This document shows, one piece after another, positions 11,878-30,277 of a DNA stretch of 64,000 bases. The position numbers and the translations under genes were made by a program. The notes under the pieces were generated by a model. That model had not been told where the DNA came from, did not search any database, and worked only from the letters and a program-made list of their open reading frames with translations. Numbering within the stretch: position 1 is the first letter of the stretch; each line of letters begins with the position of its first letter. This DNA comes from a virus: the IMG/VR virus record IMGVR_UViG_3300042894_002769, positions 15,226 through 79,225 of that record; one strand, 5' to 3'.

Positions 11878-13410
11878 TTATTTAGGTGCGTTATTGTAAC
11901 CTGTTTTTAGCGTATTAGCTGGATTATCAGGTGGTACATTTTGCGCATCTGGTTGTGGTGGTACTACTTTTGGCTGCATTGCTTCTTTCTGTTTAATTGC
12001 CTGCTCGCGTTGGTCAGCAAGTTCTTTTTCAGCAGTTTGCAATTCATTTTCAAATTCAAGTTTAGTAAAGTTTTGAGTTTTAAGCAAGGTATGAATAGAC
12101 TCATTTGCCAAAGGCGCACCCATAGTTTTAGCTTGCATAAGCTGAACAAAATCTTGACCAGTAAGTTTTAAATTCACGAAATCTAAGTTAGCTTTCACTG
12201 AAACTTCTTTTGGGTCACATCCCATCCACTCCGCAGCAATTCTCAAAATACGCTCAAGTCCTGACGCACAAGTTAATGCAACTTCCATCAAATTTGCAGT
12301 TTGTGCAGTCATTCGCAATCTTAACGCATCGCCTGATTCTTGAGTTGATTTTGAGTTAAGTAACTGACCTGCTTTTGCTTGTGCGGAAGAACGGTCATTT
12401 TCAATTGCCATACGCATTTCAGAAAGACCTGATGATGACACGCCTATGTATTTAGCATCGCCACCTATGTTCACATCAATTTTAGAGCCAGCACCAACAC
12501 GCACATCTTCATCAGGATTTCCCATGCCGCCAATCACAATTAAAGTTTCTTGACCTTGCATGTAAAGCGTATGTCGATAATCTGCTTCGCCACGATATAT
12601 CAACATGCACGAATCAACTAAACCTTGCAATGGCATTGCATCCACTTTAGCTAAGTTGTTTTTACTGTTAATAAACACAAACGGTATTTGCTGTAATGTT
12701 TCTGACCGAATTGCAGGAATATATCGCTCAGTCATGTTTTCAAGACTTATGGTATCGAAGCCTTGATAAACCGATTGCACATAACCGTAACCGGCATTTG
12801 ACGGCTCATTAGCTTCAATGTCACCAAGTGTCAATACGCGATAACGATTTACCCATTGCCATTCAAACGATTTTCTAAAGTAACGTGACTCATCAAGTAC
12901 GACTAAATTAAGACTGTTTAAACCACCAATATTATCGTTATCGTCCCAGTTAATGATTGTTTCAGCTGGATACATTGCAATGTATGGCTCAAGCTCAGTA
13001 ACCTTATCAGCAGGTAAATCAAGCAATAATCCGACACGACCTGTTAATAATTGTTCGTGATGAATTTTTCTAATCAGAGTATTTAAACTATCGTTAGTAA
13101 TTGTTGCCTTTTTACGCAAAAATTCCATCTTAGCCGGTAGCTCAATAATGGTTTCTTTGTTATTTAAAAGACCAATATAAGATTGCGTGGCAGTTGCTAC
13201 ATAATCAGGAAATACTGCACGTTGCTTATATGACTCATAATTAATATAACCGACTTCTTTAACATTCATACCGTCTTGCAAATGACTTGCTGTCGCTGGC
13301 AGGTACAATTGACCTTTGCGCTTAACGTATCTCTCGCCAGCGTAACAATCACGCGCTGTTACCCAGTCGGGTGCTTGCATTAAATATTCAGGGTGTTTTG
13401 TTGTTATCAT
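11878..13410 (-). CDS. Portal protein (DUF4055 family)
   Basis: HPEY...W...RD...GE..VK..G..YLP...Y..Y..RA.F; GR.GLL.D; ESG.AL.LR. Confidence 0.88.
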   Translation of the reverse strand: MITTKHPEYLMQAPDWVTARDCYAGERYVKRKGQLYLPATASHLQDGMNVKEVGYINYESYKQRAVFPDYVATATQSYIGLLNNKETIIELPAKMEFLRKKATITNDSLNTLIRKIHHEQLLTGRVGLLLDLPADKVTELEPYIAMYPAETIINWDDNDNIGGLNSLNLVVLDESRYFRKSFEWQWVNRYRVLTLGDIEANEPSNAGYGYVQSVYQGFDTISLENMTERYIPAIRSETLQQIPFVFINSKNNLAKVDAMPLQGLVDSCMLIYRGEADYRHTLYMQGQETLIVIGGMGNPDEDVRVGAGSKIDVNIGGDAKYIGVSSSGLSEMRMAIENDRSSAQAKAGQLLNSKSTQESGDALRLRMTAQTANLMEVALTCASGLERILRIAAEWMGCDPKEVSVKANLDFVNLKLTGQDFVQLMQAKTMGAPLANESIHTLLKTQNFTKLEFENELQTAEKELADQREQAIKQKEAMQPKVVPPQPDAQNVPPDNPANTLKTGYNNAPK

Positions 13411-14026: not shown

Positions 14027-15553
14027 CTATGCTCCTTTTGTTTTACCAAATCTCGCTCCGGTAGCAGTTGATAATATTTTGTATCGTAATTCGTCAGCAA
14101 TATGGTCACAAGAATCCGTATCCAAATCGTCTAAGTTTTTAGAATCACGAGGGAGTGTTGGGAAAATTTCAATGAAATCTTTACAAGTATTAAAAACAAA
14201 TAATCCTGCCTTTTCGCGTATTCCTGTAGGCGGTTTAAAAGAATTGCTCAAAAACTCTCGAACAGCAATCCATCCACCGACACGACTTCCAGCTGACTTA
14301 TCTGACCTTGCCCATGCTACGCCTTGGCGTATTGTCCCATCGTCCAGTCTAACCGGCTTTAACATGTCACCAGCAATCGAAATACCTGATTGAATGTTCC
14401 ATATTGCATTATCGGCTGCACCAGCGCGTACACGCCCATAGATGCCCATTTTTAGTTCTCTTTCGATGATGCCTTTGGAAATCATTTCATTTTTCATATA
14501 CAAACCTTTGTTTGTATCATCAGGGTCACAACCATACCATTCACCTATTCTGAATACATCGCCTTTCACTGTTGACATCAATCGCCCATTGGCAAGAACA
14601 ATATCTGAGCCATCAGAAGTCCAATACCAACCGACAGAAAATGGTGCGCTACTTCCCCAGTCAAAACATCTATCAATTGTACCCGCATTAGGAATATTAA
14701 AAGGTTTAACCACATGCACAAAACTATCCCAAACATCATCGAACATACCTCCGTCAACACCAGCATCCCAATCGCCAAATAACCAAGCTCTGCGTTTAGC
14801 AGGGTCTTTGATTTTATATAAATCGACAATATATTTTGGTGAAAGTTTTTTGTTTTCTGCCCAAGTTGAAAAAATGTGACACTGTGTCGTAGTTATTGGT
14901 TCGACTTCTTGGGTTCGAGGATTTAAAATTTCTACAGTTGTTTTTAGTATTTCACCCGATATACTTGCATCGATAAAGCGTTTTTTAAGCCAATTTCGAC
15001 CAACACCTGATGGGTTGCTGGTATAAAATTGACACATGGGAATTTCAGGCAGTATTGTGCCATCTGATAATGGATTTTCTTCAGGTACAAATGATGACCG
15101 ATTGAGTGATGACAATAAATCGACTATCACAGGTGTGGGTTGCTTACTGACCTCGTTAACACCGATAAATGGAAACTCTGACCCATGTAGCTTGTCATAG
15201 TCATCCATTGAACGTATGGCGCGTAGGAGTAATTCTTCGCCTGTTTTCCATACCCATTTGTACTCACCTTTTGATGCCAAAAATTTAGCACCATCATTGA
15301 ACTGTAAAAAATATTTTTTAGTTTTTCCGATAATATCATCAAGTGACGATAACTGTGTATCGATGATTAATCCGCGCCAGAAAATACCATAACCTCTACC
15401 AACAGTTTGCCGAAATCGCATAATTTGAACGTCTGTCTTACCGCCACCACGAGTACCGTGATAGAGTATGGTATTACTTGGACAAGACATTGCCAATCGT
15501 TGACTGCCTTCCTGTGCTTCCCAAACTAATTTTTGATTTGGTTCTAATTGCAT
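14027..15553 (-). CDS. terL: Terminase large subunit
   Basis: Walker A GTRGGGKT, TSNPSG coupling motif, RNase H-like FDWGSSAPFS and DHIADELRY. Confidence 0.92.
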   Translation of the reverse strand: MQLEPNQKLVWEAQEGSQRLAMSCPSNTILYHGTRGGGKTDVQIMRFRQTVGRGYGIFWRGLIIDTQLSSLDDIIGKTKKYFLQFNDGAKFLASKGEYKWVWKTGEELLLRAIRSMDDYDKLHGSEFPFIGVNEVSKQPTPVIVDLLSSLNRSSFVPEENPLSDGTILPEIPMCQFYTSNPSGVGRNWLKKRFIDASISGEILKTTVEILNPRTQEVEPITTTQCHIFSTWAENKKLSPKYIVDLYKIKDPAKRRAWLFGDWDAGVDGGMFDDVWDSFVHVVKPFNIPNAGTIDRCFDWGSSAPFSVGWYWTSDGSDIVLANGRLMSTVKGDVFRIGEWYGCDPDDTNKGLYMKNEMISKGIIERELKMGIYGRVRAGAADNAIWNIQSGISIAGDMLKPVRLDDGTIRQGVAWARSDKSAGSRVGGWIAVREFLSNSFKPPTGIREKAGLFVFNTCKDFIEIFPTLPRDSKNLDDLDTDSCDHIADELRYKILSTATGARFGKTKGA

Positions 15554-15581
15554 AATTGTTATTATTAAAATGGCTCAAAAT

Positions 15582-15622
15582 AAAAAAGGCAACCAACGAG
15601 CCTGAAGGTTGCCTTTCTTTTT
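15582..15622. terminator. Bidirectional-type intrinsic terminator
   Basis: AAAGGCAACC/GGTTGCCTTT stem flanked by A and T runs. Confidence 0.6.
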
Positions 15623-15645
15623 ATAGCAAAATAATTATTTGCAAA

Positions 15646-15720
15646 CTAGCAAACAACTTTTTTACCTTTACCTTTACCAGTGCCTTTTTTTGGCATCATT
15701 GGTTTTTTCATAGCAGCCAT
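15646..15720 (-). CDS. 24-aa Lys/Gly-rich peptide MAAMKKPMMPKKGTGKGKGKKVVC
   Basis: Manual translation; GGAG RBS upstream; followed by a terminator. Confidence 0.55.
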   Translation of the reverse strand: MAAMKKPMMPKKGTGKGKGKKVVC

Positions 15721-15752
15721 GATAGCTTCTCCAGTCAGATTAAAATCGAATC

Positions 15753-15905
15753 CTACTTTAACTTAGTACCGCAAACGGTACAAGTAAAATTATTTTTAGT
15801 ATCTGAATTCATCACACGCATATCTTTGCCATGTAACTTATCTTGTGATTGACCTGCTAATGATTTTTTGTCGCAATTATTGCATCTTTTAATCTCAGCC
15901 GTCAT
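15753..15905 (-). CDS. 50-aa zinc-ribbon protein
   Basis: Manual translation MTAEIKRCNNC...QDKLHGKDMRV.N...CTVCG; overlaps the upstream stop. Confidence 0.65.
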   Translation of the reverse strand: MTAEIKRCNNCDKKSLAGQSQDKLHGKDMRVMNSDTKNNFTCTVCGTKLK

Positions 15906-16167
15906 TTTGAATTTCCTCGACAGGCGCTACAGGTAACTCGACATCAATTACGCTATCATCAGTTAGTGCAAATAGCGCTATTCTTTTTTCAAGTGCCACT
16001 AAGTAGCCAGTCATGTGTAATAACTGTGTGTTAAGTAAAGCTACATGTTCCTGTGAAATATCCACATTAATTGCGCCATGTGCAAGGTCTGTTAAGAACT
16101 TTGACAAGTCATTAAGTTTAACCTCTAAGGCTTCTTTTTCACTAATTACTCTTTCTTGGAATGACAT
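15895..16167 (-). CDS. crAss001_48-like helical protein
   Basis: FQERVISEK..L..KL..L..F...LL..QL..M..Y...LE.RI. Confidence 0.7.
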   Translation of the reverse strand: MSFQERVISEKEALEVKLNDLSKFLTDLAHGAINVDISQEHVALLNTQLLHMTGYLVALEKRIALFALTDDSVIDVELPVAPVEEIQNDG

Positions 16168-16183
16168 AATTTTTCCTCTAAGT

Positions 16184-16246
16184 TGGTCAGTTATGAGGGA
16201 CTTGCACCCCCGACCTCAGCGCTCTACCAAACTGAGCTAATAACTG
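16184..16246 (-). ncRNA. tRNA-like RNA lacking the anticodon arm, CCA-ended
   Basis: CAGTTAT TA GCTC-AGTTTGGTA-GAGC GCTGAGGTC GGGGG-TGCAAGT-CCCTC ATAACTG A CCA. Confidence 0.8.
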
Positions 16247-16257
16247 TAATATAAACG

Positions 16258-16333
16258 TGGTGTCCTCACAGGGAGTCGAACCCCAATCTTACGCATTATG
16301 AGTACGGAGCATTGACCGTTATGCTATAAGGAC
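16258..16333 (-). tRNA. tRNA with CAT anticodon (Met elongator or Ile2)
   Basis: 76-nt cloverleaf: GTCCTTA/TGAGGAC acceptor, GCAT/ATGC D stem, CT-CAT-AA loop, TTCGACT T loop, ACCA end. Confidence 0.88.
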
Positions 16334-16792
16334 TTACTCAATCACATACCAATCATCTGCAAGTGTGTCACTAACTGATGCAACCCATGTGTCAAATGAA
16401 TTTCTGGTATTTTTAATAACAAAATGCGCACATAATTCTGAAAATTCAAAGTCACGCGCTTTAACTAATTTAACATACATACCATTACCGTTCCAGCCAG
16501 CGCGAGCCACAATGTGACCCACTTTAAGCGCTTCAATTGCCATACCAAATGACAATCTATCAACAGGGCGATAGGCTTTTGAAAAAACTTCTTTTGGCGA
16601 CCATGTAACATAGCCGTCATACTGTACGGTATTAGCTTGACCACCATCAAGATATTCAACTAAATAACCTGCGTCGTTTGGGTTTTCATCTTTTGGAAGT
16701 TCCCATCCGCGAAAATCATTGTACTCTTGACGTGTCATTTCAACAGCGTTAATTACTTTTGTGCCGATATATTGTCGCATAAAATTTCTCAA
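16334..16792 (-). CDS. DUF2829 / Thoeris anti-defence Tad2-family protein
   Basis: LSFGMAIEALK.G..VARAGWNG.GM...WVASVSD.LADDW. Confidence 0.8.
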   Translation of the reverse strand: MRNFMRQYIGTKVINAVEMTRQEYNDFRGWELPKDENPNDAGYLVEYLDGGQANTVQYDGYVTWSPKEVFSKAYRPVDRLSFGMAIEALKVGHIVARAGWNGNGMYVKLVKARDFEFSELCAHFVIKNTRNSFDTWVASVSDTLADDWYVIE

Positions 16793-17499
16793 TTGTTGTA
16801 ACGTAGTAAAATATCACGACAAATGCCTGACCGAACAACGTCATCGATGGTGAAATAGCAAAATTGAATGTTATTCACATTTTGTAATCGATTCATAGCA
16901 TCTTTAAGTCCTGATTTACAACTTATATCACATTGATTCACATCACCATCGATAATTATCTTACAGCCTTCACCAACACGAGTTAGAAACATGCGCATTT
17001 GTTCAACTGATGTATTTTGTGCTTCATCAAGTATCACAACTGAATCGGTGAATGTCACACCTCGCATATAGGCTAATGGTTTGAACTCAATCATTTTCTT
17101 ATTCAGATAATAATCCACCACAGGCTTACCCAAACGTCGTGATAATATCTCTATCATTGGGAGCATCCAAGGCTCAGTCTTATCTGATAATTCACCTTTC
17201 AAATAACCAAGGCTTTCACCAGCTTCAACTATTGGACGACAAATGATTATTTTGGTTATGTTTTTTAATTGCAATTGTTGCGCAGCATAACTTAGCGCAA
17301 TATAACTTTTTCCAGTACCAGCGCAACCTACGCCAAAAGTAATAATATTGCCATAAATTGCATTTAAATATTGTTGTTGTGCATCGTTTAAAGCAGTGGG
17401 TGCTTTGACATGATATGTCTGCTCAACCTGATACGATACAGATTCTTCTAATTTAGCTTTACGTTTATCCCTTCTTTTTGCTCTTTTATCAAATTCCAT
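16789..17499 (-). CDS. phoH: PhoH-like ATPase
   Basis: G.AGTGKS, RP.VEAGE.LGYL.G, LAYMRG.TF, LDEAQN, FLTR.G, GD..Q.D, VVRS. Confidence 0.93.
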   Translation of the reverse strand: MEFDKRAKRRDKRKAKLEESVSYQVEQTYHVKAPTALNDAQQQYLNAIYGNIITFGVGCAGTGKSYIALSYAAQQLQLKNITKIIICRPIVEAGESLGYLKGELSDKTEPWMLPMIEILSRRLGKPVVDYYLNKKMIEFKPLAYMRGVTFTDSVVILDEAQNTSVEQMRMFLTRVGEGCKIIIDGDVNQCDISCKSGLKDAMNRLQNVNNIQFCYFTIDDVVRSGICRDILLRYNN

Positions 17500-22596: not shown

Positions 22597-22841
22597 GATT
22601 TTAATCTCCGGTGGTGGTGGTTTGTTGTTTGGGTTTCATTTACAGCGCGGTTAGTGTATCGCGTTTTTTAAAAAAGTTTTAAAAAAGTTTAAAAATATTT
22701 TTCTGTTTTTTCGTAACTTGTTGAATTATAACGATATTTATTTTTTTCAAAAATTTTAAAATAAACATTTTTCGGATTTTTTCCGCACTTGTTGCGGGTG
22801 TCATACTGGTAAGCGCTGCCGGTTATATCTCCACCTTGCAA

Positions 22842-22912
22842 GCTCTGCAGCTCTGCAGCTCTGCAGGTGTTCAGGTAGGTGTTCAGGTAGGTGTTCAGGT
22901 AGGTGTTCAGGT
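22842..22912. repeat. Tandem repeats (GCTCTGCA)x3 then (GGTGTTCAGGTA)x~4
   Basis: Read directly. Confidence 0.95.
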
Positions 22913-22924
22913 CTGCCGGAATTT

Positions 22925-23110
22925 TGACGCGTCAATTTTACAGCGCGTCAATTCTCTGGCATGTCAACTTTCTGACGCGTCAATTCTATGACGGTGTCAA
23001 TTTTCTGACGCGTCAATTCTATGACGGTGTCAATTTTCTGACGCGTCAATTTTGTGACGCGACAATTTTTTGACGCGTCAAATTTCAGGCGCGACAATTT
23101 TTTGACACTC
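22925..23110. repeat. Array of ~12 palindromic TGACGCGTCA-type units with 16-17 bp period
   Basis: Unit starts 22925, 22941, 22957, 22973, 22989, 23006, 23022, 23039, 23055, 23071, 23087, 23103. Confidence 0.92.
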
Positions 23111-23164: not shown

Positions 23165-23202
23165 AAAAAAAAGCGCATGATAGATTTTACCCATCAATGC
23201 GC
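23165..23202 (-). terminator. Intrinsic terminator after the DnaN-like operon
   Basis: AGCGCAT.GATGG/CTATCATGCGCT stem plus T-run. Confidence 0.65.
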
Positions 23203-23279
23203 TGTCGTCTGTAAAATTAATTGCCTTGGTTAGCCTTTAGCATTAATTGCCTTGGTTAGCCTTCATGCCGTTAGCCTTC

Positions 23280-24317
23280 TTAGTGACGTTGCCCCATTGC
23301 AATATTGTACCCGTTAGCCTTCTCGATGACTGCACACATTTCGGTAAAAATAATTTCAACGTCGTTAGCCTTCTCGATTGTGAGTAAATCAATCAGATAG
23401 TTACATTCAAATCTACCTATAATTTGGATGCCCTTAGTATTATTGTCGTGGTTAGCCTTTACGCTAAACAGCGTTTTCTTTTCGTGGTCAGCTATGTCGT
23501 GAAATAGTAAATCGTTTCCATCCAGTATCACAGTCACACCTTTTGACTTATCCACTGATAATAAATTACTGAGGTTAGCCTTCAATCCTTTAAGCATTTC
23601 CTTTCTTTTAACTGTCACAGTGGTTAATTTATTATTGACATATTGCGCCATCAACCTGTCAAAGCTAGGATATTTAGAGTTGATTGGCGTTACATACAAG
23701 GCAAAGTCAACACCATTAAATTCAATAACGCTCAAATTACCTTCTTTTGTGTACCTGACGTAAACATCGACATCGGCATCAATAATGCTTAATATTTCGA
23801 CGGCATTCCTTGGTATGAGTACATCAATTAAATGTTTGCATGGAACATCAAGTTTATCTGTTACCAGTCTATAGCCGTCACTCACAGCGGTGTTGATAGA
23901 CTTATCTGTAAACGATACGAATTGACTGTTTAAGTAATACCTAACATCAGCTTTACCCATAACAGTCAGGTAGGCTTTGTTAAACAATTTTGCGGCATTT
24001 ACTTCACATATTTTAGCCGTCACAGGTGATTCGAGTATGAGCGACTCAAAGCGTTCTTTAAGTACATCCGCAAAAACTGTTGATACCGTTAAACTCGGAT
24101 AAACCGCATTTAAATCCTTACCGTGCATAAGCGCATCAACAAATGAAATTACTGACGGCTTAATGTTATTATTGTTCTCTGAAAAGTCATTGCGTACCAC
24201 TAAAGATACCTCAGGACTTGTTGCAAAAACGTGTGATTCTGTTAATAGTACACCGTCACCAAAAATATATTTTTTGCCAACTGATTTAATAAATTTACTG
24301 ATAATTTTAGATTTCAT
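23280..24317 (-). CDS. DnaN (beta sliding clamp)-like protein
   Basis: DVRYYLN...AVSDGYRL...LIPRNAV..L...YPSFDR, as in beta-clamp domains II/III. Confidence 0.75.
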   Translation of the reverse strand: MKSKIISKFIKSVGKKYIFGDGVLLTESHVFATSPEVSLVVRNDFSENNNNIKPSVISFVDALMHGKDLNAVYPSLTVSTVFADVLKERFESLILESPVTAKICEVNAAKLFNKAYLTVMGKADVRYYLNSQFVSFTDKSINTAVSDGYRLVTDKLDVPCKHLIDVLIPRNAVEILSIIDADVDVYVRYTKEGNLSVIEFNGVDFALYVTPINSKYPSFDRLMAQYVNNKLTTVTVKRKEMLKGLKANLSNLLSVDKSKGVTVILDGNDLLFHDIADHEKKTLFSVKANHDNNTKGIQIIGRFECNYLIDLLTIEKANDVEIIFTEMCAVIEKANGYNIAMGQRH

Positions 24318-24374
24318 TTTAATTCGCCCGTGATTTTAATTAGTGTTTACTTTATTTAACCATTTCGCTTTTAT

Positions 24375-24770
24375 TCAGCAAATAACTTTAACGATTTCGT
24401 AACCGTAATCATGCGCAATTTCAAGCAATGTTCGTTCAATTCTACCTTCGCTAATTGAACTAAATGCGCTAAATCCTGCATTTTGGACAGCTTCCTGAGC
24501 TGCGACATTGTGCTTATTGTATCCGCCACCGCTAGCCTTACCGTTGCCTTTTGAATAAATACCGTTTTCAAAATCGCCCAAGCCATAAGCGTGAAAGTCA
24601 GCATAGATTGTACTGGCAGAAGCACTGCGCCCACTATAGATACCCAGTTCCATAATGGTGCGAATTTCGTTATCAACTAACGCGACAACAACATACTTTT
24701 GCACGCATTCTTTATCAGAATGATTTTGAAAACGAGGTGATACTTTTGATACATCGAATTTAATAGCCAT
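24375..24770 (-). CDS. Hypothetical protein
   Basis: SKGNGKASGGGYNK...A.QEA..NAG motif; likely start MAIKF behind GGAG. Confidence 0.7.
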   Translation of the reverse strand: MAIKFDVSKVSPRFQNHSDKECVQKYVVVALVDNEIRTIMELGIYSGRSASASTIYADFHAYGLGDFENGIYSKGNGKASGGGYNKHNVAAQEAVQNAGFSAFSSISEGRIERTLLEIAHDYGYEIVKVIC

Positions 24771-24889
24771 GTTAATCTCCAAATAATGTGGTAAAGTGTA
24801 AGTAAGACAGCGTGTTTTCTCGCTGTTGCTGAGTAATATACCGACATTTTTAAAAAACAAAAGAAATTTTTAAAAATTTTTAAAATTTT

Positions 24890-25405
24890 TTAAATTTGAA
24901 AAACTAAAGATTCGTCAATTTCTAGGCTATCTTCTTGTTTTATAACGTCAATTAGTGATTTATGATAAGTAACTTTACCGTCGCGTCCTTTGCGCAATAG
25001 GTGCAATCCTTGCGCAGTCGCGTCGCCTTCAGCATCAGCAATGCCTAAATCACAAAGAAGGCTTTTTATCACATTGCTTTTAACACGGGTCTTAATGCGC
25101 AAGGTGGCGAAACTCACAAAGTCAGGTGATGGCGTGTAATCGACATTTTTATGAAATACGCTAGCCGGTTCTCGGTCTTCAGGCAGCGGTCTTCTGTCAG
25201 ATTTGTCGAAATTGGTACGCATTGCCCTGCTATTTCGCTTTTCACGTTGTTCGTTAGCCTTTTTAGCGTCAAGAAACTTCTGGCGCTTAGGTGACACCTT
25301 ATTGCTTGGGATTAGCCTTTTACCGGTTTTGTCAAAAACAGATTTGATTTCAGTCAACGGTTTGAGTTTATCGTATTCAGACATGCCGTTAGACCTCGCT
25401 TTCAA
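24890..25405 (-). CDS. Hypothetical basic protein (possible C-terminal DNA-binding domain)
   Basis: ORF in operon. Confidence 0.6.
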   Translation of the reverse strand: MKARSNGMSEYDKLKPLTEIKSVFDKTGKRLIPSNKVSPKRQKFLDAKKANEQREKRNSRAMRTNFDKSDRRPLPEDREPASVFHKNVDYTPSPDFVSFATLRIKTRVKSNVIKSLLCDLGIADAEGDATAQGLHLLRKGRDGKVTYHKSLIDVIKQEDSLEIDESLVFQI

Positions 25406-25991
25406 TATAATTGAGAACTATCACAGCAGCAAAGATTAACAATGACCATTTTCGATACCCGCTAATTGTCGCAATATACGGTGATGCGTTAGCCTTAGTT
25501 AGCCTTCTGGTTAAACCTTCGTTAACTATCTCAATTAACCCCATGTCACATAAATACTTATCGATGGTCGAGCGTTTCACGCCACCTAGCACCGACATTT
25601 CAAAGACACTCAGATAGCCTTCGTTAAAAGATGTCGTTAGCTGCTCTGCATAACTTTCGTCAATGTCAATGAAAAGTAAATACTTACTGATATAGGTATC
25701 AACAAAATGAACATCTATGTCAGTTGCTGTCGAATCGAGTTCCAGTAACACATTGCTCACAAGGTCTTTTCCATAACCAATTACTGAGATGATTGCAATA
25801 TCAACTGGGATTTCATAATTTTTAACAGCTCTGCGCCCAATGCTCTCAATAGTGTAATCAAGTTTTCTAATTAGCCTGTCACTGATTAGCCTTTTTAACA
25901 TAGCGTTGTAATCGGAACTGGTTAGCCTTTCTTTTTTATTAGCGTACTTATTGAACGCTTTAAGAAACGTAAATACGTTAGTTTTTTTCAT
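25389..25991 (-). CDS. Hypothetical protein (antirepressor-C-like tail)
   Basis: ORF behind a promoter; GVKRSTIDKYL.DMGLI...RLT pattern. Confidence 0.6.
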   Translation of the reverse strand: MKKTNVFTFLKAFNKYANKKERLTSSDYNAMLKRLISDRLIRKLDYTIESIGRRAVKNYEIPVDIAIISVIGYGKDLVSNVLLELDSTATDIDVHFVDTYISKYLLFIDIDESYAEQLTTSFNEGYLSVFEMSVLGGVKRSTIDKYLCDMGLIEIVNEGLTRRLTKANASPYIATISGYRKWSLLIFAAVIVLNYIESEV

Positions 25992-26033
25992 GTCGTTAGC
26001 CTTTAATGCAGTGAATAGAATCGACGCTCGCTA

Positions 26034-26062
26034 AGTGTATCACTACCAAAACAGTCAGTCAA
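26034..26062 (-). promoter_or_regulatory. Sigma70 promoter
   Basis: TTGACT-17nt-TACACT with upstream A/T tracts. Confidence 0.6.
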
Positions 26063-26219
26063 AAAAAAATCTCATGAATTTTGCACGAGTTTTAAAATTT
26101 TTTTGAAAAAAAAAATAAAAATAATTTTTCACCATCCGCACCCATTGCCGACGACCCCTAAAAAATCCGATTTTGTTGTAAAAATACCACTGATGTTTAG
26201 CCGTCTAAGTAGTATTTTG

Positions 26220-26670
26220 TCCGTAAGTATTTGATTTATATACATATTTTCAAAAATATTTCTTGCAAAATGAATAAAATCAATAGCTTGCCATGTTAAT
26301 ATATATGTTATATATAATATATATATTATATATATTTATATATAGTATATACTATATATAAATATATTTTTAATCGTTACACGATTTACCCCTATACACC
26401 CCGTTTTGCTCATCAGTACCTACCACAGATTAGCCCTTCCTGTCAAGCATTATTTTTACTCTATTTTCCACCTATCCGAAAAAAAAAACGACTACCCACT
26501 TTTTTAAGCACCACTTACCAATAGTGTACAGCTGGTCTACATATCATTTTGCCAATTCAAAAAAAGTCTGTGACGTTTTTTAATCGACCCTTTTTTAACC
26601 TATATTTCAATACGTTGCCACAAAGCCTAAATTTGCATTTTTAAAAACCCCCTTATAACTTATTGATTTA
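26220..26670. other. Putative replication origin: (AT)n unwinding element with IHF-consensus sites
   Basis: Nearly pure AT 26296-26372; WATCAANNNNTTR at 26224-26236(-), 26278-26290(+), 26656-26668(-); between divergent units and upstream of primase-helicase. Confidence 0.55.
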
Positions 26671-26784
26671 TAAAAACAACAAGTTTCCACTTCACCTCAA
26701 TTTTACCAGCTCTCTCATAAAAATTTTCTGATACCACCCACTATTTCCACCATCCCTACCGACCCCCATTTTTAAATTAAAAAG

Positions 26785-26813
26785 TTGCACACAACTTTCT
26801 ACAATGTTAAGCT
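26785..26813 (+). promoter_or_regulatory. Sigma70 promoter of replication arm
   Basis: TTGCAC-17nt-TAAGCT with extended TG. Confidence 0.55.
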
Positions 26814-26928
26814 CTTTATCGACCCTGTGAGCGATAATGTTCCGCCATGAACATCTCTACCTATTGAAATTTATCAATACATCGCTCTCAGCGGTCACTT
26901 TACTAATTTCAACAGGACAACCTTACTA

Positions 26929-27555
26929 ATGACTCAATCATCCACTGTGACCCCCATAGAATTAAATTTAACAACCATTGCACCATACCTGCACAACGTA
27001 AATGTCGCACTGCGGTCTTTCAACAGTCATTGCGAAGCCACATTAGCTCGCGGTGTCGCTTTAGGTATCGAACTCTTAGCGTTACGCGTGTCTGTTGTGA
27101 CTCAATTTGAAAAAGCAAAATCAACTTCTATCGAATCGCGTGAAGGTCAAATCGCATGGCGAAATTACGCAAAAGAAAACATCCCTATCTCAATAACGCA
27201 TTGCAATCGTTTCATAAACCTTGCACGATATTACATGCAACACGACGCTCTACCTATCCATAGCTCTATAAGCGCAGCATGCGCAGCAATTGGAGCATCG
27301 CCTGAAGTCCTAAAGTCACTTCAAGAACGTGAATCTAATGGCGAAAACATCAGCAGGGATAAAGTAACAAAAGCCATTAACCTTTCACGAAATACGCTTA
27401 ACCTTAAAAAATCAATTCAGGCAGTTAATCAAAACACACTTAAAATCATCGACGGTCACGCACCTAATGAATTATCCAAAGACCAATGGTTAATCTTGCG
27501 TGACGAATTAACAGATATCGCTGACCACATCACTGCGATTATTAAAAAACTATGA
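26929..27555 (+). CDS. DUF3102-like protein
   Basis: LG.ELL..R...W..Y...N..IS...CNRFI.LA. Confidence 0.55.
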   Translation: MTQSSTVTPIELNLTTIAPYLHNVNVALRSFNSHCEATLARGVALGIELLALRVSVVTQFEKAKSTSIESREGQIAWRNYAKENIPISITHCNRFINLARYYMQHDALPIHSSISAACAAIGASPEVLKSLQERESNGENISRDKVTKAINLSRNTLNLKKSIQAVNQNTLKIIDGHAPNELSKDQWLILRDELTDIADHITAIIKKL

Positions 27556-27701
27556 AGAAAATTCGCAAAAGATACAAAACACTACGAATTTACGAATCGG
27601 ATTACCCCAATTTGTTAAAAATTAAAAAATCTCTTAATTTACCTTCGCTATCGGACGCACTGCGATTTGCAATCAGTACCACTATGGAAATGCGGAAATG
27701 A
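27552..27701 (+). CDS. 49-aa ribbon-helix-helix-like DNA-binding protein
   Basis: Manual translation MKKIRKRYKTLRIYESDYPNLLKIKKSLNLPSLSDALRFAI...; coupled to both neighbours by ATGA overlaps. Confidence 0.6.
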   Translation: MKKIRKRYKTLRIYESDYPNLLKIKKSLNLPSLSDALRFAISTTMEMRK

Positions 27702-30277
27702 ATGACCAACTTAACAATTTGCCGCAAGAATTACGACTATTGCCACAATGGTGCTACACGTCACCTGACCGCAATGGTAAATACAAAATTCCAATGGGTA
27801 GAAATAAAACCTATGCTGCGAGCAATGACCCCGATACATGGTTAACCTTTGAAGATGCAGTTAGCCTGTCTGAAGGAAAACCTATTGGCTTTATGCTGTC
27901 AGCTAATGACCCCTATGCTGTGATAGACATTGATACGGGATATGCGTTTTGCGATATTGCAGGACAATTGCAACCCGACTTAGCCTTAATGCGCTATGAG
28001 TTTCATCAGCGATTATTGTCGTATTTGAATACCACGCCTACTTATAGCGAGATTACGCTGTCAGGCTACAATTATCACACTTGGCATCGATTGCTTGATA
28101 TGTCGGAGATATTTGCAGGGATTCGTGTATCGAGAATGCCTATTAAATTGCCTGATGGAACGCACCATACGCTTGATAATGCGGGGATTGAAATTTACTC
28201 TAAGGAGCGATTTATTGTCTGCACGGGTAATTCGATTTCACTAGATACCATTAGCCTTGCGTCTACTGAGTTTTATACGTTTTTGGAAAAAGCGCGTAAA
28301 TTGACGACAAGAGCCGGTGGTAGCAAAGCCAGTGATTCTAAACCGCAAGTGGATACGGATGTGACCGTCCTGTCGAATTTACTGGGCATTGACTTTGATG
28401 AGGATTCTTATGTGAGAGCCATTGATGTTGTGACAGCAATTACCACTGAAGGCAATGCTTTTGAGGAAACCTATCGTGAGTTATTTCGCGGTGATATGAC
28501 GGATTATCCATCGCAAAGTGAAGCTGATTATGCGCTGATAATTGCTATAGCCAAAATATCCCCTAATGACCCGCAGGTATTTAGGTTGTTTCGATTATCT
28601 GCACTGGGTAAACGTCCAAAGGCTATGGACAATGATGTCTATTTGCAACGCTCTGTGAATACGGCTAGAGCTGAGATTAAGCGCGAAGAATCTGAAATGA
28701 ATGAAGTGCGTGACTTTATCAATTCGACGAGAAAAGCCAAGGAGAAAAAACCTCAGCCTCGACTATTGACACAGACTGCGACGAAATCTGCGATATTGGA
28801 TGTACATGGTAAGCCACTAGTGTCTACTAGAGTACGTCAGCATAAGAAAGCCATTATGCCTGATATTTCGGATATTGTGCCTGAAGGAACTGACCTCAAA
28901 TTGGTGGGAACTGAAAATGAACTAGACTATCCGCCTGCCTTAGCAGGTGAGCATAGCAATTGGCTAATGGAACATGCGCCACAACCAATGGCAGAAGCCT
29001 GTATTGTGAACACGTTGTCACTCTTGGCAGGTATTGGCGGAGCGTCGTATAAAATCAACCCCATTAGACCGACGGGTATTAACAGCTATTTTGTTTTGAT
29101 GTCACTGTCTGCGACAGGTAAAGATATTTTGCATTCGGGCATGGGGTATATTAAAAAATCGATGGCAGATGTTGCGCCAGAATTGATAGATTTTATTGAT
29201 AATAATCAATACAAGTCACAAAGTGCCATTATGCAAGCCATTGATGTGCATAAATTTGATAGCTTTTTGCATTTGATTCCTGAATTTTCTAAATTATTGC
29301 ATAGTGCAAATACTGTGTCACACTACGCAGAACTGTTAAACTTTACCTTATCGGCATATACGGCTTCGAGTGACGGTAATGAATTGCAAGGTGTGCGTAA
29401 GTCGGGATTTGCGACAGGTAAAGCTGGTGCAGAACTTAAACCAAGACCTAATGGCTTTGGGTATTCGTTTTGCGGTGAATGTACTGAAAATGATTTTAAC
29501 TCAGCGCTCAATAATGGCATGCTAAGAGATGGCAAATTGTCGCGCTTTATCTGCGTTAGGGGTGATGACTATTTGACCATTGGCAACCCCACAAATCCGC
29601 ATTTACCGCCTAAGTTGAAACATAACTTAGCTAAAGCGATTAAATTTAGTGCTAGTGGTCAAAAAAGAATGATTCACATGACCGATAGGGCGCAGCGACT
29701 TGACCAAGCATATTATGTGCTGATGTCAGATACGCTTAACCAGCATCGCTCGGTTGATGATGACCCTATGCGCGTTGTTTATAACCGCGCTAGGCTTAAA
29801 GTGTGGCGTGTTGCAGGTAGCCTAGCTATGCTTGAGAATCCTGATGCGCCTATTATCACAGAAGAACAATATTTGTGGGCAATGGGTCTTGTGAATCGTG
29901 ATGTGTCAATAATGTCATACAAAATTATTAATCGCATAGTCGGTGATGGCGCGGATGACCATGACAGAATGGATAAGGTTAAGAGCCTAATTGATGATTT
30001 TACGGTTTATGGTTACACGCACAAAGAACACGACGTGCTGTATGGCAATGCGCTTGAGAAACATGGCGTAGTGGCACGCAGGGCATTGCGTGAAAGTGTC
30101 AAATATTTGCCGATATTTAAAAACCCGCGCACGGGGAAATCGGATGTAGCTTTGATTGATAGTGCAATTAAAAATCTTGTTTCAGAAGGCGTGATTAAAT
30201 ATTACGACGCTAAGGCAAGTAATGCTAATTTCGGTATTCGTACCGAGTGTTATTCACTGCAAGGAAAAGTAAAATGA
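27698..30277 (+). CDS. NrS-1-like primase-polymerase fused to DUF3987-like helicase
   Basis: LP.ELR..PQW, DP.TW.TF, IDID, SE.TLSG...H, EIYS..RF; SQSEAD..L middle domain; SATGKD; DG.LSRF. Confidence 0.85.
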   Translation: MNDQLNNLPQELRLLPQWCYTSPDRNGKYKIPMGRNKTYAASNDPDTWLTFEDAVSLSEGKPIGFMLSANDPYAVIDIDTGYAFCDIAGQLQPDLALMRYEFHQRLLSYLNTTPTYSEITLSGYNYHTWHRLLDMSEIFAGIRVSRMPIKLPDGTHHTLDNAGIEIYSKERFIVCTGNSISLDTISLASTEFYTFLEKARKLTTRAGGSKASDSKPQVDTDVTVLSNLLGIDFDEDSYVRAIDVVTAITTEGNAFEETYRELFRGDMTDYPSQSEADYALIIAIAKISPNDPQVFRLFRLSALGKRPKAMDNDVYLQRSVNTARAEIKREESEMNEVRDFINSTRKAKEKKPQPRLLTQTATKSAILDVHGKPLVSTRVRQHKKAIMPDISDIVPEGTDLKLVGTENELDYPPALAGEHSNWLMEHAPQPMAEACIVNTLSLLAGIGGASYKINPIRPTGINSYFVLMSLSATGKDILHSGMGYIKKSMADVAPELIDFIDNNQYKSQSAIMQAIDVHKFDSFLHLIPEFSKLLHSANTVSHYAELLNFTLSAYTASSDGNELQGVRKSGFATGKAGAELKPRPNGFGYSFCGECTENDFNSALNNGMLRDGKLSRFICVRGDDYLTIGNPTNPHLPPKLKHNLAKAIKFSASGQKRMIHMTDRAQRLDQAYYVLMSDTLNQHRSVDDDPMRVVYNRARLKVWRVAGSLAMLENPDAPIITEEQYLWAMGLVNRDVSIMSYKIINRIVGDGADDHDRMDKVKSLIDDFTVYGYTHKEHDVLYGNALEKHGVVARRALRESVKYLPIFKNPRTGKSDVALIDSAIKNLVSEGVIKYYDAKASNANFGIRTECYSLQGKVK

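Follow-up and report, generated by a model that had tools for sequence, protein, structure and literature searches.

What does a nine-base word do when it recurs, always in the same orientation, through several unrelated genes of a single phage? The word in question, GTTAGCCTT, lies around the sliding-clamp and primase-helicase genes of a phage from lake-water metagenomes (IMG/VR virus record IMGVR_UViG_3300042894_002769, 79,225 bp). The window analysed is a stretch of 64,000 nucleotides covering bases 15226-79225 of this record, and coordinates refer to the window unless marked as genome. We hypothesize, with a probability of about 0.55, that the nonamers are iteron-like recognition sites of the phage's NrS-1-type prim-pol-helicase, acting as a self-loading initiator.

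A sequence-only reading of the window had listed 12 exact copies of GTTAGCCTT on the + strand, starting at 23229, 23255, 23270, 23313, 23364, 23451, 23574, 25253, 25488, 25498, 25921 and 25995 (23229-26003), and eight one-mismatch copies at 24531, 25311, 25613, 25885, 27841, 27860, 27979 and 28250. All of these were recovered on the + strand, and an additional copy with two mismatches was found at 25870. Dinucleotide shuffles of the window gave an expectation of 0.53 exact copies and a maximum of 3. Counted on both strands of the whole 79,225-bp genome, GTTAGCCTT was the most frequent 9-mer, with 12 forward and 0 reverse copies and no copy beyond 23229-26003; the nonamer is neither spread along the genome nor present on both strands. 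The 8-mer TTAGCCTT occurred 16 times forward and 0 times reverse, every copy within 23230-28251. All 18 forward copies of the 7-mer core TTAGCCT fell in this same zone, where the core had no reverse copy; its two reverse copies both lay outside. The single orientation claimed for exact and degenerate copies alike was thus borne out, and in total approximately 21 sites are distributed across 5 kb. In an alignment of the copies, the nine positions carried all the information apart from 'not T' at position -1, and no longer hidden repeat, hairpin or conserved structure was seen around them. Two copies in the window read TTGGTTAGCCTT. Spacings between sites were irregular, ranging from 10 to 1846 bp, and judged by eye they showed no periodicity that would indicate helical phasing. 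The GTTAGCCTT pattern is real and strongly non-random.

The sites are arranged in clusters that run through genes transcribed in both directions. Cluster A (23229..23582, + strand) consists of the seven exact copies from 23229 to 23574. Three of them are in the 3' untranslated stretch between the stop codon of the sliding-clamp gene and its terminator, and the other four each encode KAN within the final 100 codons of the clamp gene. As the earlier reading had pointed out, these seven copies adjoin a repeat array at 22.8-23.1 kb, and they do so within 354 bp; the successive spacings (26, 15, 43, 51, 87 and 123 bp) become wider farther from that array. A lone one-mismatch copy, GCTAGCCTT (24531..24539, +), encodes KAS in a 131-aa gene. 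Cluster B (25253..26003, +) combines the exact copies at 25253, 25488, 25498, 25921 and 25995 with degenerate copies at 25311, 25613, 25870 and 25885, and sits in the genes for a 164-aa and a 200-aa protein as well as in the latter's ribosome-binding site and 5' leader. Cluster C (27841..28258, +) is made of degenerate copies, GTTAACCTT at 27841, GTTAGCCTG at 27860, CTTAGCCTT at 27979 and ATTAGCCTT at 28250. These occupy the first 560 nt of the primase gene, where the DNA orientation of the sites is unchanged despite reversed transcription. On the minus strand, the three untranslated copies of cluster A (23216-23284) also make up a 26-bp tandem (AAGGCTAACCAAGGCAATTAATGCTA), and they give rise to a mini-ORF (open reading frame) of 7 codons, MKANQGN*, whose ribosome-binding site and first codons are copies of the nonamer; degenerate AAGGCAAT units adjoin the exact copies there.

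Copies inside unrelated ORFs, in differing frames and sometimes between genes had been taken to mean a signal at the nucleic-acid level, not a repeat in protein, and the analysis of frames and codons upheld both the observation and the conclusion. On the minus strand, frame 0 gives KAN (six times), frame 1 EGY and frame 2 RL, and four exact copies are intergenic. Altogether they occupy four minus-strand genes in three reading frames, plus the sense strand of the plus-strand primase gene. When codons were resampled synonymously according to the phage's own usage, the four minus-strand genes were expected to contain 0.098 copies, as compared with 8 observed. The same resampling of the primase gene gave 0.126 copies of TTAGCCT expected versus 3 observed. 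The codons that form GTTAGCCTT are rare in this phage (AAG 19%, AAC 28%, AGG 5% and CTA 11%). Within the zone, 6/6 KAN tripeptides are coded as AAGGCTAAC; in the 5/5 KAN found elsewhere in the genome, lysine is AAA. Because the codon null is exceeded and rare codons are used, we conclude that GTTAGCCTT is a DNA-level, strand-polar signal imposed on four or five unrelated genes through rare codons.

The genomic setting points to replication. Two divergent genome arms part at 26.0-26.9 kb, where the genome reaches its highest local A+T, and the minimum of the cumulative GC skew falls in the 26-28 kb bin, near the point where transcription diverges. Divergent promoters were predicted at 26062-26034 (-) and 26777-26805 (+). 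Between clusters B and C lies an AT-rich divergent intergenic region (26065..26785), with an A+T peak of 86% at 26300-26399, which is a candidate DNA-unwinding element. Leftward from the divergence, the order is the 200-aa gene (25389..25991, -, six sites), the 164-aa gene (24890..25384, -, two sites, family unassigned), the 131-aa gene (phrog_7028), the sliding-clamp gene (23280..24317, -, 345 aa, four sites; phrog_947 at 7.3e-11, PF02767 sub-threshold) and a strong intrinsic terminator of the clamp operon (23165..23202, -), a hairpin then U8 that comes directly after the three untranslated copies. Rightward, genes for a 208-aa protein and a 49-aa ORF precede the primase-helicase gene, followed later by helicases, an annealing protein and a family-A polymerase. 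The zone is confined to the clamp and primase-helicase module, which supports a role in replication.

The candidate reader is the prim-pol-helicase itself (27698..30277, +, 859 aa; phrog_3022 at 1.8e-107). Its N-terminus matched the structure 7OLA of PriRep from SaPI5, a Staphylococcus aureus pathogenicity island (SaPI), and the NrS-1 N300 chains. BLASTP against the NrS-1 primase gave E=4e-8 over residues 17-177, with 25% identity over 168 residues. Homologues of the protein carry PF13148 and, in most cases, PF22763, the NrS-1-type helix-bundle domain; PF22763 was not detected on the window primase itself at E<=0.01. By the BLASTP match, and with PF22763 taken from homologues, the enzyme has the make-up of the NrS-1 type, an archaeo-eukaryotic primase (AEP) prim-pol domain with a helix-bundle domain. 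No closer primase relative was found in a plasmid collection. The last 199 residues were folded with AlphaFold2 (AF2) and a 52-sequence alignment, giving a mean predicted local distance difference test (pLDDT) score of 91.6. Residues 1-81 of this model superposed on MCM lid helices (Z 9.3), and residues 90-199 formed a winged helix (VIA-align Z 8-9, root-mean-square deviation 1.5-2.8 A over 63-77 residues) with Rpa2, MCM, ORC, SAMD1-DNA and histone H5 as best matches. Foldseek returned the same kinds of protein with non-significant E-values. The model therefore predicts a C-terminal winged-helix domain at residues ~750-859 (29945..30274, +), and at the level of fold the protein would correspond to initiators of the Pri-Rep type, which join a primase-helicase to a C-terminal winged helix. 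This supports the view that the primase C-terminus is a DNA-binding module, with no particular specificity implied, because the winged-helix fold is common and the Z-scores are middling.

By analogy with the enzymes described below, the primase-helicase would bind GTTAGCCTT, and its sites would define a wide stretch for initiation that surrounds the AT-rich divergent region at 26.1-26.8 kb. Two modes of read-out can be envisaged: duplex GTTAGCCTT might be bound through the winged helix, like SaPI Rep on its iterons, or GTTAGCCTT on the + strand might serve as a single-stranded template recognised via the helix-bundle domain, like the 8-nt start of the NrS-1 enzyme; both could also operate together. 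Strict polarity fits the single-strand template mode more naturally, and it would also suit unidirectional loading. Many weakly spaced sites would concentrate hexamers near the AT-rich region, and their uniform polarity would restrict loading or priming to one strand. If the NrS-1 analogy holds, the recognised strand would be the + strand, and synthesis would begin just 5' of each word and run leftward, on the + strand template, co-directionally with transcription of the left arm. Taken one step further, the dispersed and strictly polar 'start-site zone' would represent a new origin architecture, in which ~20 long template words, concealed in genes by means of rare codons, let the enzyme prime and load on a single strand and start unidirectional leading-strand synthesis; we consider this extension speculative and rather improbable.

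Short repeats also occur beside the primase genes of distant relatives. In NrS-1 (AB746912), the top over-represented 9-mer was GTTACACTT; its 6 forward and 5 reverse copies are all packed into 17061-17377. This cluster is directly 3' of the primase gene (14895-17051), inside ORF NRS1_29, and is interleaved with AT-rich stretches. GTTACACTT and GTTAGCCTT are identical at 7/9 positions, and each usually follows a G or C; allowing for offsets, the chance probability of this match is ~0.01, and the likeness is suggestive only. The published recognition sequence of the NrS-1 primase is the 8-nt word 5'-TTTGGTTA-3' (PMC8718748), which occurs once in the NrS-1 genome and overlaps a GTTACACTT repeat there as TTTGGTTACACTT. 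The recognition word has been described as restricted to the centre of the NrS-1 genome, and it may serve as an origin (PMC7102993). As judged from these sequence features, the cluster at 17061-17377 looks like the origin of NrS-1. In the same genome, 3/4 copies of TTTGACCA, which is present in the recognition-sequence oligonucleotide of PMC7102993, are within ~250 bp of the GTTACACTT cluster.

Compact clusters of 9-10-bp repeats were likewise found near related prim-pol genes in bacterial elements from Acinetobacter, Steroidobacteraceae and Methylococcales (L029 11967-12105, L030 11910-12047, L032 11999-12197 and L031 2049-2134). Two Acinetobacter elements have TTGCAACTT repeated 7-9 times, and a Steroidobacteraceae element has GGTTCGTTG repeated 4-5 times, in each case directly 3' of the primase-helicase ORF. 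Checking of the ORFs in L029 and L032 showed that the cluster comes directly after the primase-helicase ORF, in the manner of phage-inducible chromosomal islands (PICIs); L030 mirrors L029, and in L031 the matched N-terminal segment ends ~1.1 kb before the cluster. As far as these comparisons reach, this enzyme family recurrently has a cluster of 9-10-bp repeats next to its gene, and the only candidates for such a cluster in the window genome are GTTAGCCTT and the neighbouring palindrome array. A weaker echo was seen in Escherichia phage GottfriedDienst, a Seuratvirus (MZ501071; loci L025 and L036), where 7/8 forward copies of the 8-mer AAGCTGCC are within 5.4 kb around the primase gene. This genome also contains TAACCACA in 27 forward and 18 reverse copies, about every 1.2 kb genome-wide; its complement, TGTGGTTA, is similar to the word of the NrS-1 primase, TTTGGTTA, and related words (TGACCACA) top the lists in the Nipunavirus-like loci L024 and L027.

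How does the layout compare with origins and polar words that are already described? The C-terminal winged helix of SaPI Rep recognises 5-6-bp iterons, six to twelve of which flank an AT-rich centre downstream of rep (PMC9371898), and Gram-negative PICIs share this origin layout (PMC6092414). Like them, the window combines a primase-helicase initiator with a (predicted) C-terminal winged helix and short repeats (5-6 bp in SaPIs, 9 bp here) in two sets around an AT-rich stretch near the initiator gene. Nine sites lie to the left of the AT-rich region (25253-26003) and four degenerate ones to its right (27841-28258), at distances of 0.3 and 1.1 kb that are far larger than in SaPIs. The SaPI/PICI repeats differ in forming a compact non-coding block directly 3' of rep with opposed copies, whereas the window sites are 5' of the gene or within its start, and mostly inside genes. 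Because the zone lacks the 3' position and the opposed orientations, we liken the zone to SaPI-type origins in its working and do not assign it to them. The NrS-1 enzyme, a homologous AEP prim-pol, needs a long, specific and strand-specific word (PMC8718748, PMC7102993). Its repeats differ from those of the window in being present in both orientations within ~310 bp, 3' of the gene, and the published word extends 5' of the repeat core, whereas the window conserves only the 9-mer.

The alpha protein of phage P4 recognises octamer 'type I iterons' that are grouped in two separate stretches around its gene, with several kb between them. Like the window enzyme, for which the winged helix is predicted, it is a primase-helicase with a C-terminal winged helix (domain layout cited in PMC2777425). 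It differs in that its primase is of the DnaG type, not AEP. Classical iterons (P1, F, pSC101 and R6K) are direct repeats in one orientation, with secondary clusters flanking the initiator gene, and the repeats of the lambda origin are embedded in the coding sequence of gene O. Classical iterons are 17-22 bp long, few and regularly spaced at about two helical turns, as opposed to the nonamer with its 9-10 informative positions, irregular spacing and ~21 sites across five genes. Chi and KOPS resemble the window word in being short, asymmetric, strictly strand-polar and tolerated in coding sequence. They are spread over whole replichores, whereas the window word is missing from the other 74 kb of the genome.

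Close relatives of the phage were compared by protein only, among them one 78,040-bp relative. Its primase (P0080) is 98.8% identical, with ten substitutions. Its 200-aa protein is ~73% identical, yet 5/6 of the peptides coded by sites are kept, KERL being lost. Its clamp is 99% identical at residues 1-225 and 82% identical at residues 226-345, and 4/4 KAN are kept while adjacent residues change (L249R, V286T, H290R, V320I and Y337V). A 64%-identical clamp (P0003) also kept 4/4 KAN. In more distant homologues, 35% and 28% identical to the 200-aa protein, the KAN and RL peptides were not kept, showing that the protein itself does not need them. Peptide retention in close relatives is thus a modest indication that the sites are conserved. 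A mosaic boundary was seen inside the clamp gene at approximately residue 245, the first KAN (window 23280-23642 corresponds to residues 226-345). Identity before and after this boundary was 99% and 82% for the 78-kb relative, and 53% and 84% for the 64% relative. From these protein alignments, the C-terminal third of the clamp, bearing cluster A, seems to be exchanged as a module of its own. Megablast against phage records, two metagenome scans and four scans of viral contigs with proteins (the clamp and the primase singly, and alignments of the primase and of the 200-aa protein) gave no match. The sequencing runs listed for this phage were DNA metagenomes from lakes and fresh water, with no RNA run among them. 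Scanning IMG/VR for three closely spaced copies of GTTAGCCTT returned 15 loci, of which 14 were regular or near-regular tandem repeats in unrelated contigs. One locus (L013) was irregular, and only L011 gave a weak tblastn match (24% identity) to two phage proteins outside the module.

Several observations weigh against recognition of the nonamers by the prim-pol-helicase. Their layout is unlike that of any documented Pri-Rep origin: the sites lie upstream of the gene or in its first 560 nt, no repeat cluster follows the stop at 30277, and the spread is 5 kb as compared with 150-400 bp. All sites point one way, whereas SaPI origins require opposed copies (PMC9371898). The distance to the AT peak is ~300 bp for the closest exact site and 3 kb for the densest cluster. 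The 7/9 match to the NrS-1 word carries the chance probability of ~0.01 given above, and the zone encodes three other uncharacterised, possibly DNA-binding proteins. No comparably strong polar word was found in Queuovirinae, which have a 28%-identical primase and the same local gene order. In the primase of the 78,040-bp relative, T184V and L187P fall in the 28250 copy, which is probably altered there. Strict polarity, dispersal over 5 kb and embedding in coding sequence are unusual for iteron-like sites.

The main competing explanation is that the sites are bound by one of the proteins encoded in the zone (the 200-aa or 164-aa proteins, both helix-turn-helix (HTH)-like, or the 208-aa protein upstream of the primase) in a regulatory or organisational role such as autoregulation, a roadblock in the leftward operon, membrane anchoring or partition-like clustering. 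Direct repeats around a regulator's own gene are common; here, six sites are in the 200-aa gene, whose 5' leader and ribosome-binding site are covered by one exact copy. The model of the 200-aa protein suggested a MerR/Xis-like winged HTH, with the DNA-binding domains of RacA and pSK1 Par as best matches (Z 5.6), and a C-terminal hydrophobic helix. A protein atlas pointed to Rha, HTH_17 and ORF6N regulators at 0.86-0.88, and the 164-aa protein has an HTH-like stretch weakly similar to that of its 200-aa neighbour. However, these fold and feature matches of the 200-aa protein are all below the tools' own noise levels, and Pfam gave no match to the 200-, 164-, 208- and 49-aa proteins even at E<=5. 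Most sites are far from promoters. In the close relative, a 200-aa protein that has diverged by ~27% goes together with a nearly identical primase and with sites whose coding is largely kept. Domains of the MerR, RacA and Par types act as dimers on inverted repeats, a habit better suited to the palindromes next to cluster A than to an asymmetric 9-mer. We give this explanation a low probability.

The palindromes in question belong to the neighbouring array (22842..23110), which is made of (CTCTGCAG)x3, (GGTGTTCAGGTA)x4 and ~10-12 TGACGCGTCA palindromes and is probably read by another protein than the reader of the nonamer. The RacA site is TGACGCCGGCGTCA (PMC4914108), and the TGACGCGTCA palindromes have half-sites of this 'ram' site. 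The HTH-like proteins of the zone are more likely to read the palindromes, although they are still the main rival readers of the nonamer. On the basis of the fold model, the TGACGCGTCA array and the 200-aa protein may constitute a membrane-anchored pair resembling a centromere or an anchor.

Could the word act in RNA? Read as AAGGCUAAC, it would stand at the 5' (cluster B) and 3' (cluster A) ends of the leftward clamp-operon transcript and control translation or stability through an RNA-binding protein or a complementary RNA. Seventeen sites do fall in one leftward unit, from the promoter at 26062-26034 to the terminator at 23165-23202; the AAGG-N8-ATG ribosome-binding site of the 200-aa gene is itself a copy, the 7-codon mini-ORF has another in front of it, and the primase mRNA would bear the complementary word. 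Yet the DNA orientation of the sites stays constant although the direction of transcription flips at 26.0-26.9 kb. The same orientation continues into the oppositely transcribed primase gene, where the RNA carries the complement, so that a reader of RNA would need two different words on the two sides of the divergent promoters. The copies share no conserved structure or flank, no Rfam family matched in the region, and at least one further probable internal promoter makes a single transcript uncertain. An RNA signal is therefore disfavoured, and we consider it improbable.

Polar barriers to a fork or translocase, of the Tus-Ter or RTP type and bound by a phage protein, would give replication from the AT-rich region a single direction or shield the clamp operon from head-on collisions. 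Fork traps typically comprise several polar sites in tandem, and ~21 strictly one-way sites on both sides of a putative origin would agree with such a trap. Known Ter sites, however, are longer (~20-30 bp) and few, and no Tus- or RTP-like protein was detected, which makes fork barriers very unlikely.

Equally doubtful are directional loading sites for a terminase (pac-like) or a genome-entry motor, as the sequence-only reading had proposed. The sites are polar, clustered and adjoin a complex repeat array, and some pac sites lie in coding sequence. They are not next to the terminase genes: those for the terminase large subunit (14027-15553) and the portal (11878-13410) lie ~8-11 kb further left, and the zone, a replication module, encodes nothing that resembles a terminase. 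The 127-bp end overlap of the record, probably an assembly overlap, is far away, ~38 kb from the 22.8-23.1 kb array. The analogy that had been drawn to repeats beside terminal repeats found no support, as the array is not at a known genome end. Since the equivalent repeats of distant relatives adjoin primase genes, replication initiation is favoured over packaging or entry. What survives of the original proposal is a directional protein-binding signal; its 'translocase' would apply loosely if the primase-helicase reads the sites, and its terminase and genome-entry versions are not supported.

Three further candidates were rejected. A promoter for a virion RNA polymerase of an N4-like phage does not apply, as the 4147-aa ORF is tape-measure-like and the copies have neither a hairpin nor a fixed -10. 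Promoters in general were dismissed because there is no fixed-distance downstream element and promoter-like matches stay at shuffle level. A genome-wide polar word of the Chi/KOPS type was ruled out by the absence of copies outside the 5-kb zone of the 79-kb genome.

Some features were observed outside the set of nonamers. The 4147-aa ORF (genome 1719-14162, - strand, outside the window) is tape-measure-like at residues 723-1153 and transglycosylase-like at residues 1431-1556. Other over-represented, strand-biased words occur genome-wide, namely TGTCACAG (13 forward, 1 reverse), TATCACAG (13/5) and TCACAGGTG (7/0), at positions such as genome 586, 9885 and 12345 through to 78656; they have no relation to the nonamer and possibly serve as a transcription signal. 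Phased A/T tracts of the AAAAATTTT type face leftward at 22650-22790, 24840-24890 and 26060-26130, each ahead of a leftward gene group, and are probably curved upstream promoter elements.

To our knowledge, the choice of start sites by AEP prim-pol-helicases is understood only for the compact origins of the SaPI type; for NrS-1, we know only of a biochemical 8-nt word whose genomic meaning is unclear. The phage described here offers a clean and statistically unambiguous case, with ~21 polar sites and an identifiable candidate reader. Together with it, the NrS-1 cluster of GGTTACACTT repeats, which overlaps the recognition word at one place, makes the link between template word and origin iteron directly testable. 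If the polar start-site zone envisaged above is true, the single-strand word of the helix-bundle domain and the duplex iteron of the winged helix would be one and the same, which would explain how NrS-1-type enzymes choose their origins. The locus also indicates that a DNA-binding code can override codon choice over several unrelated genes, which matters for annotation, for recoding and for the design of synthetic phage genomes.

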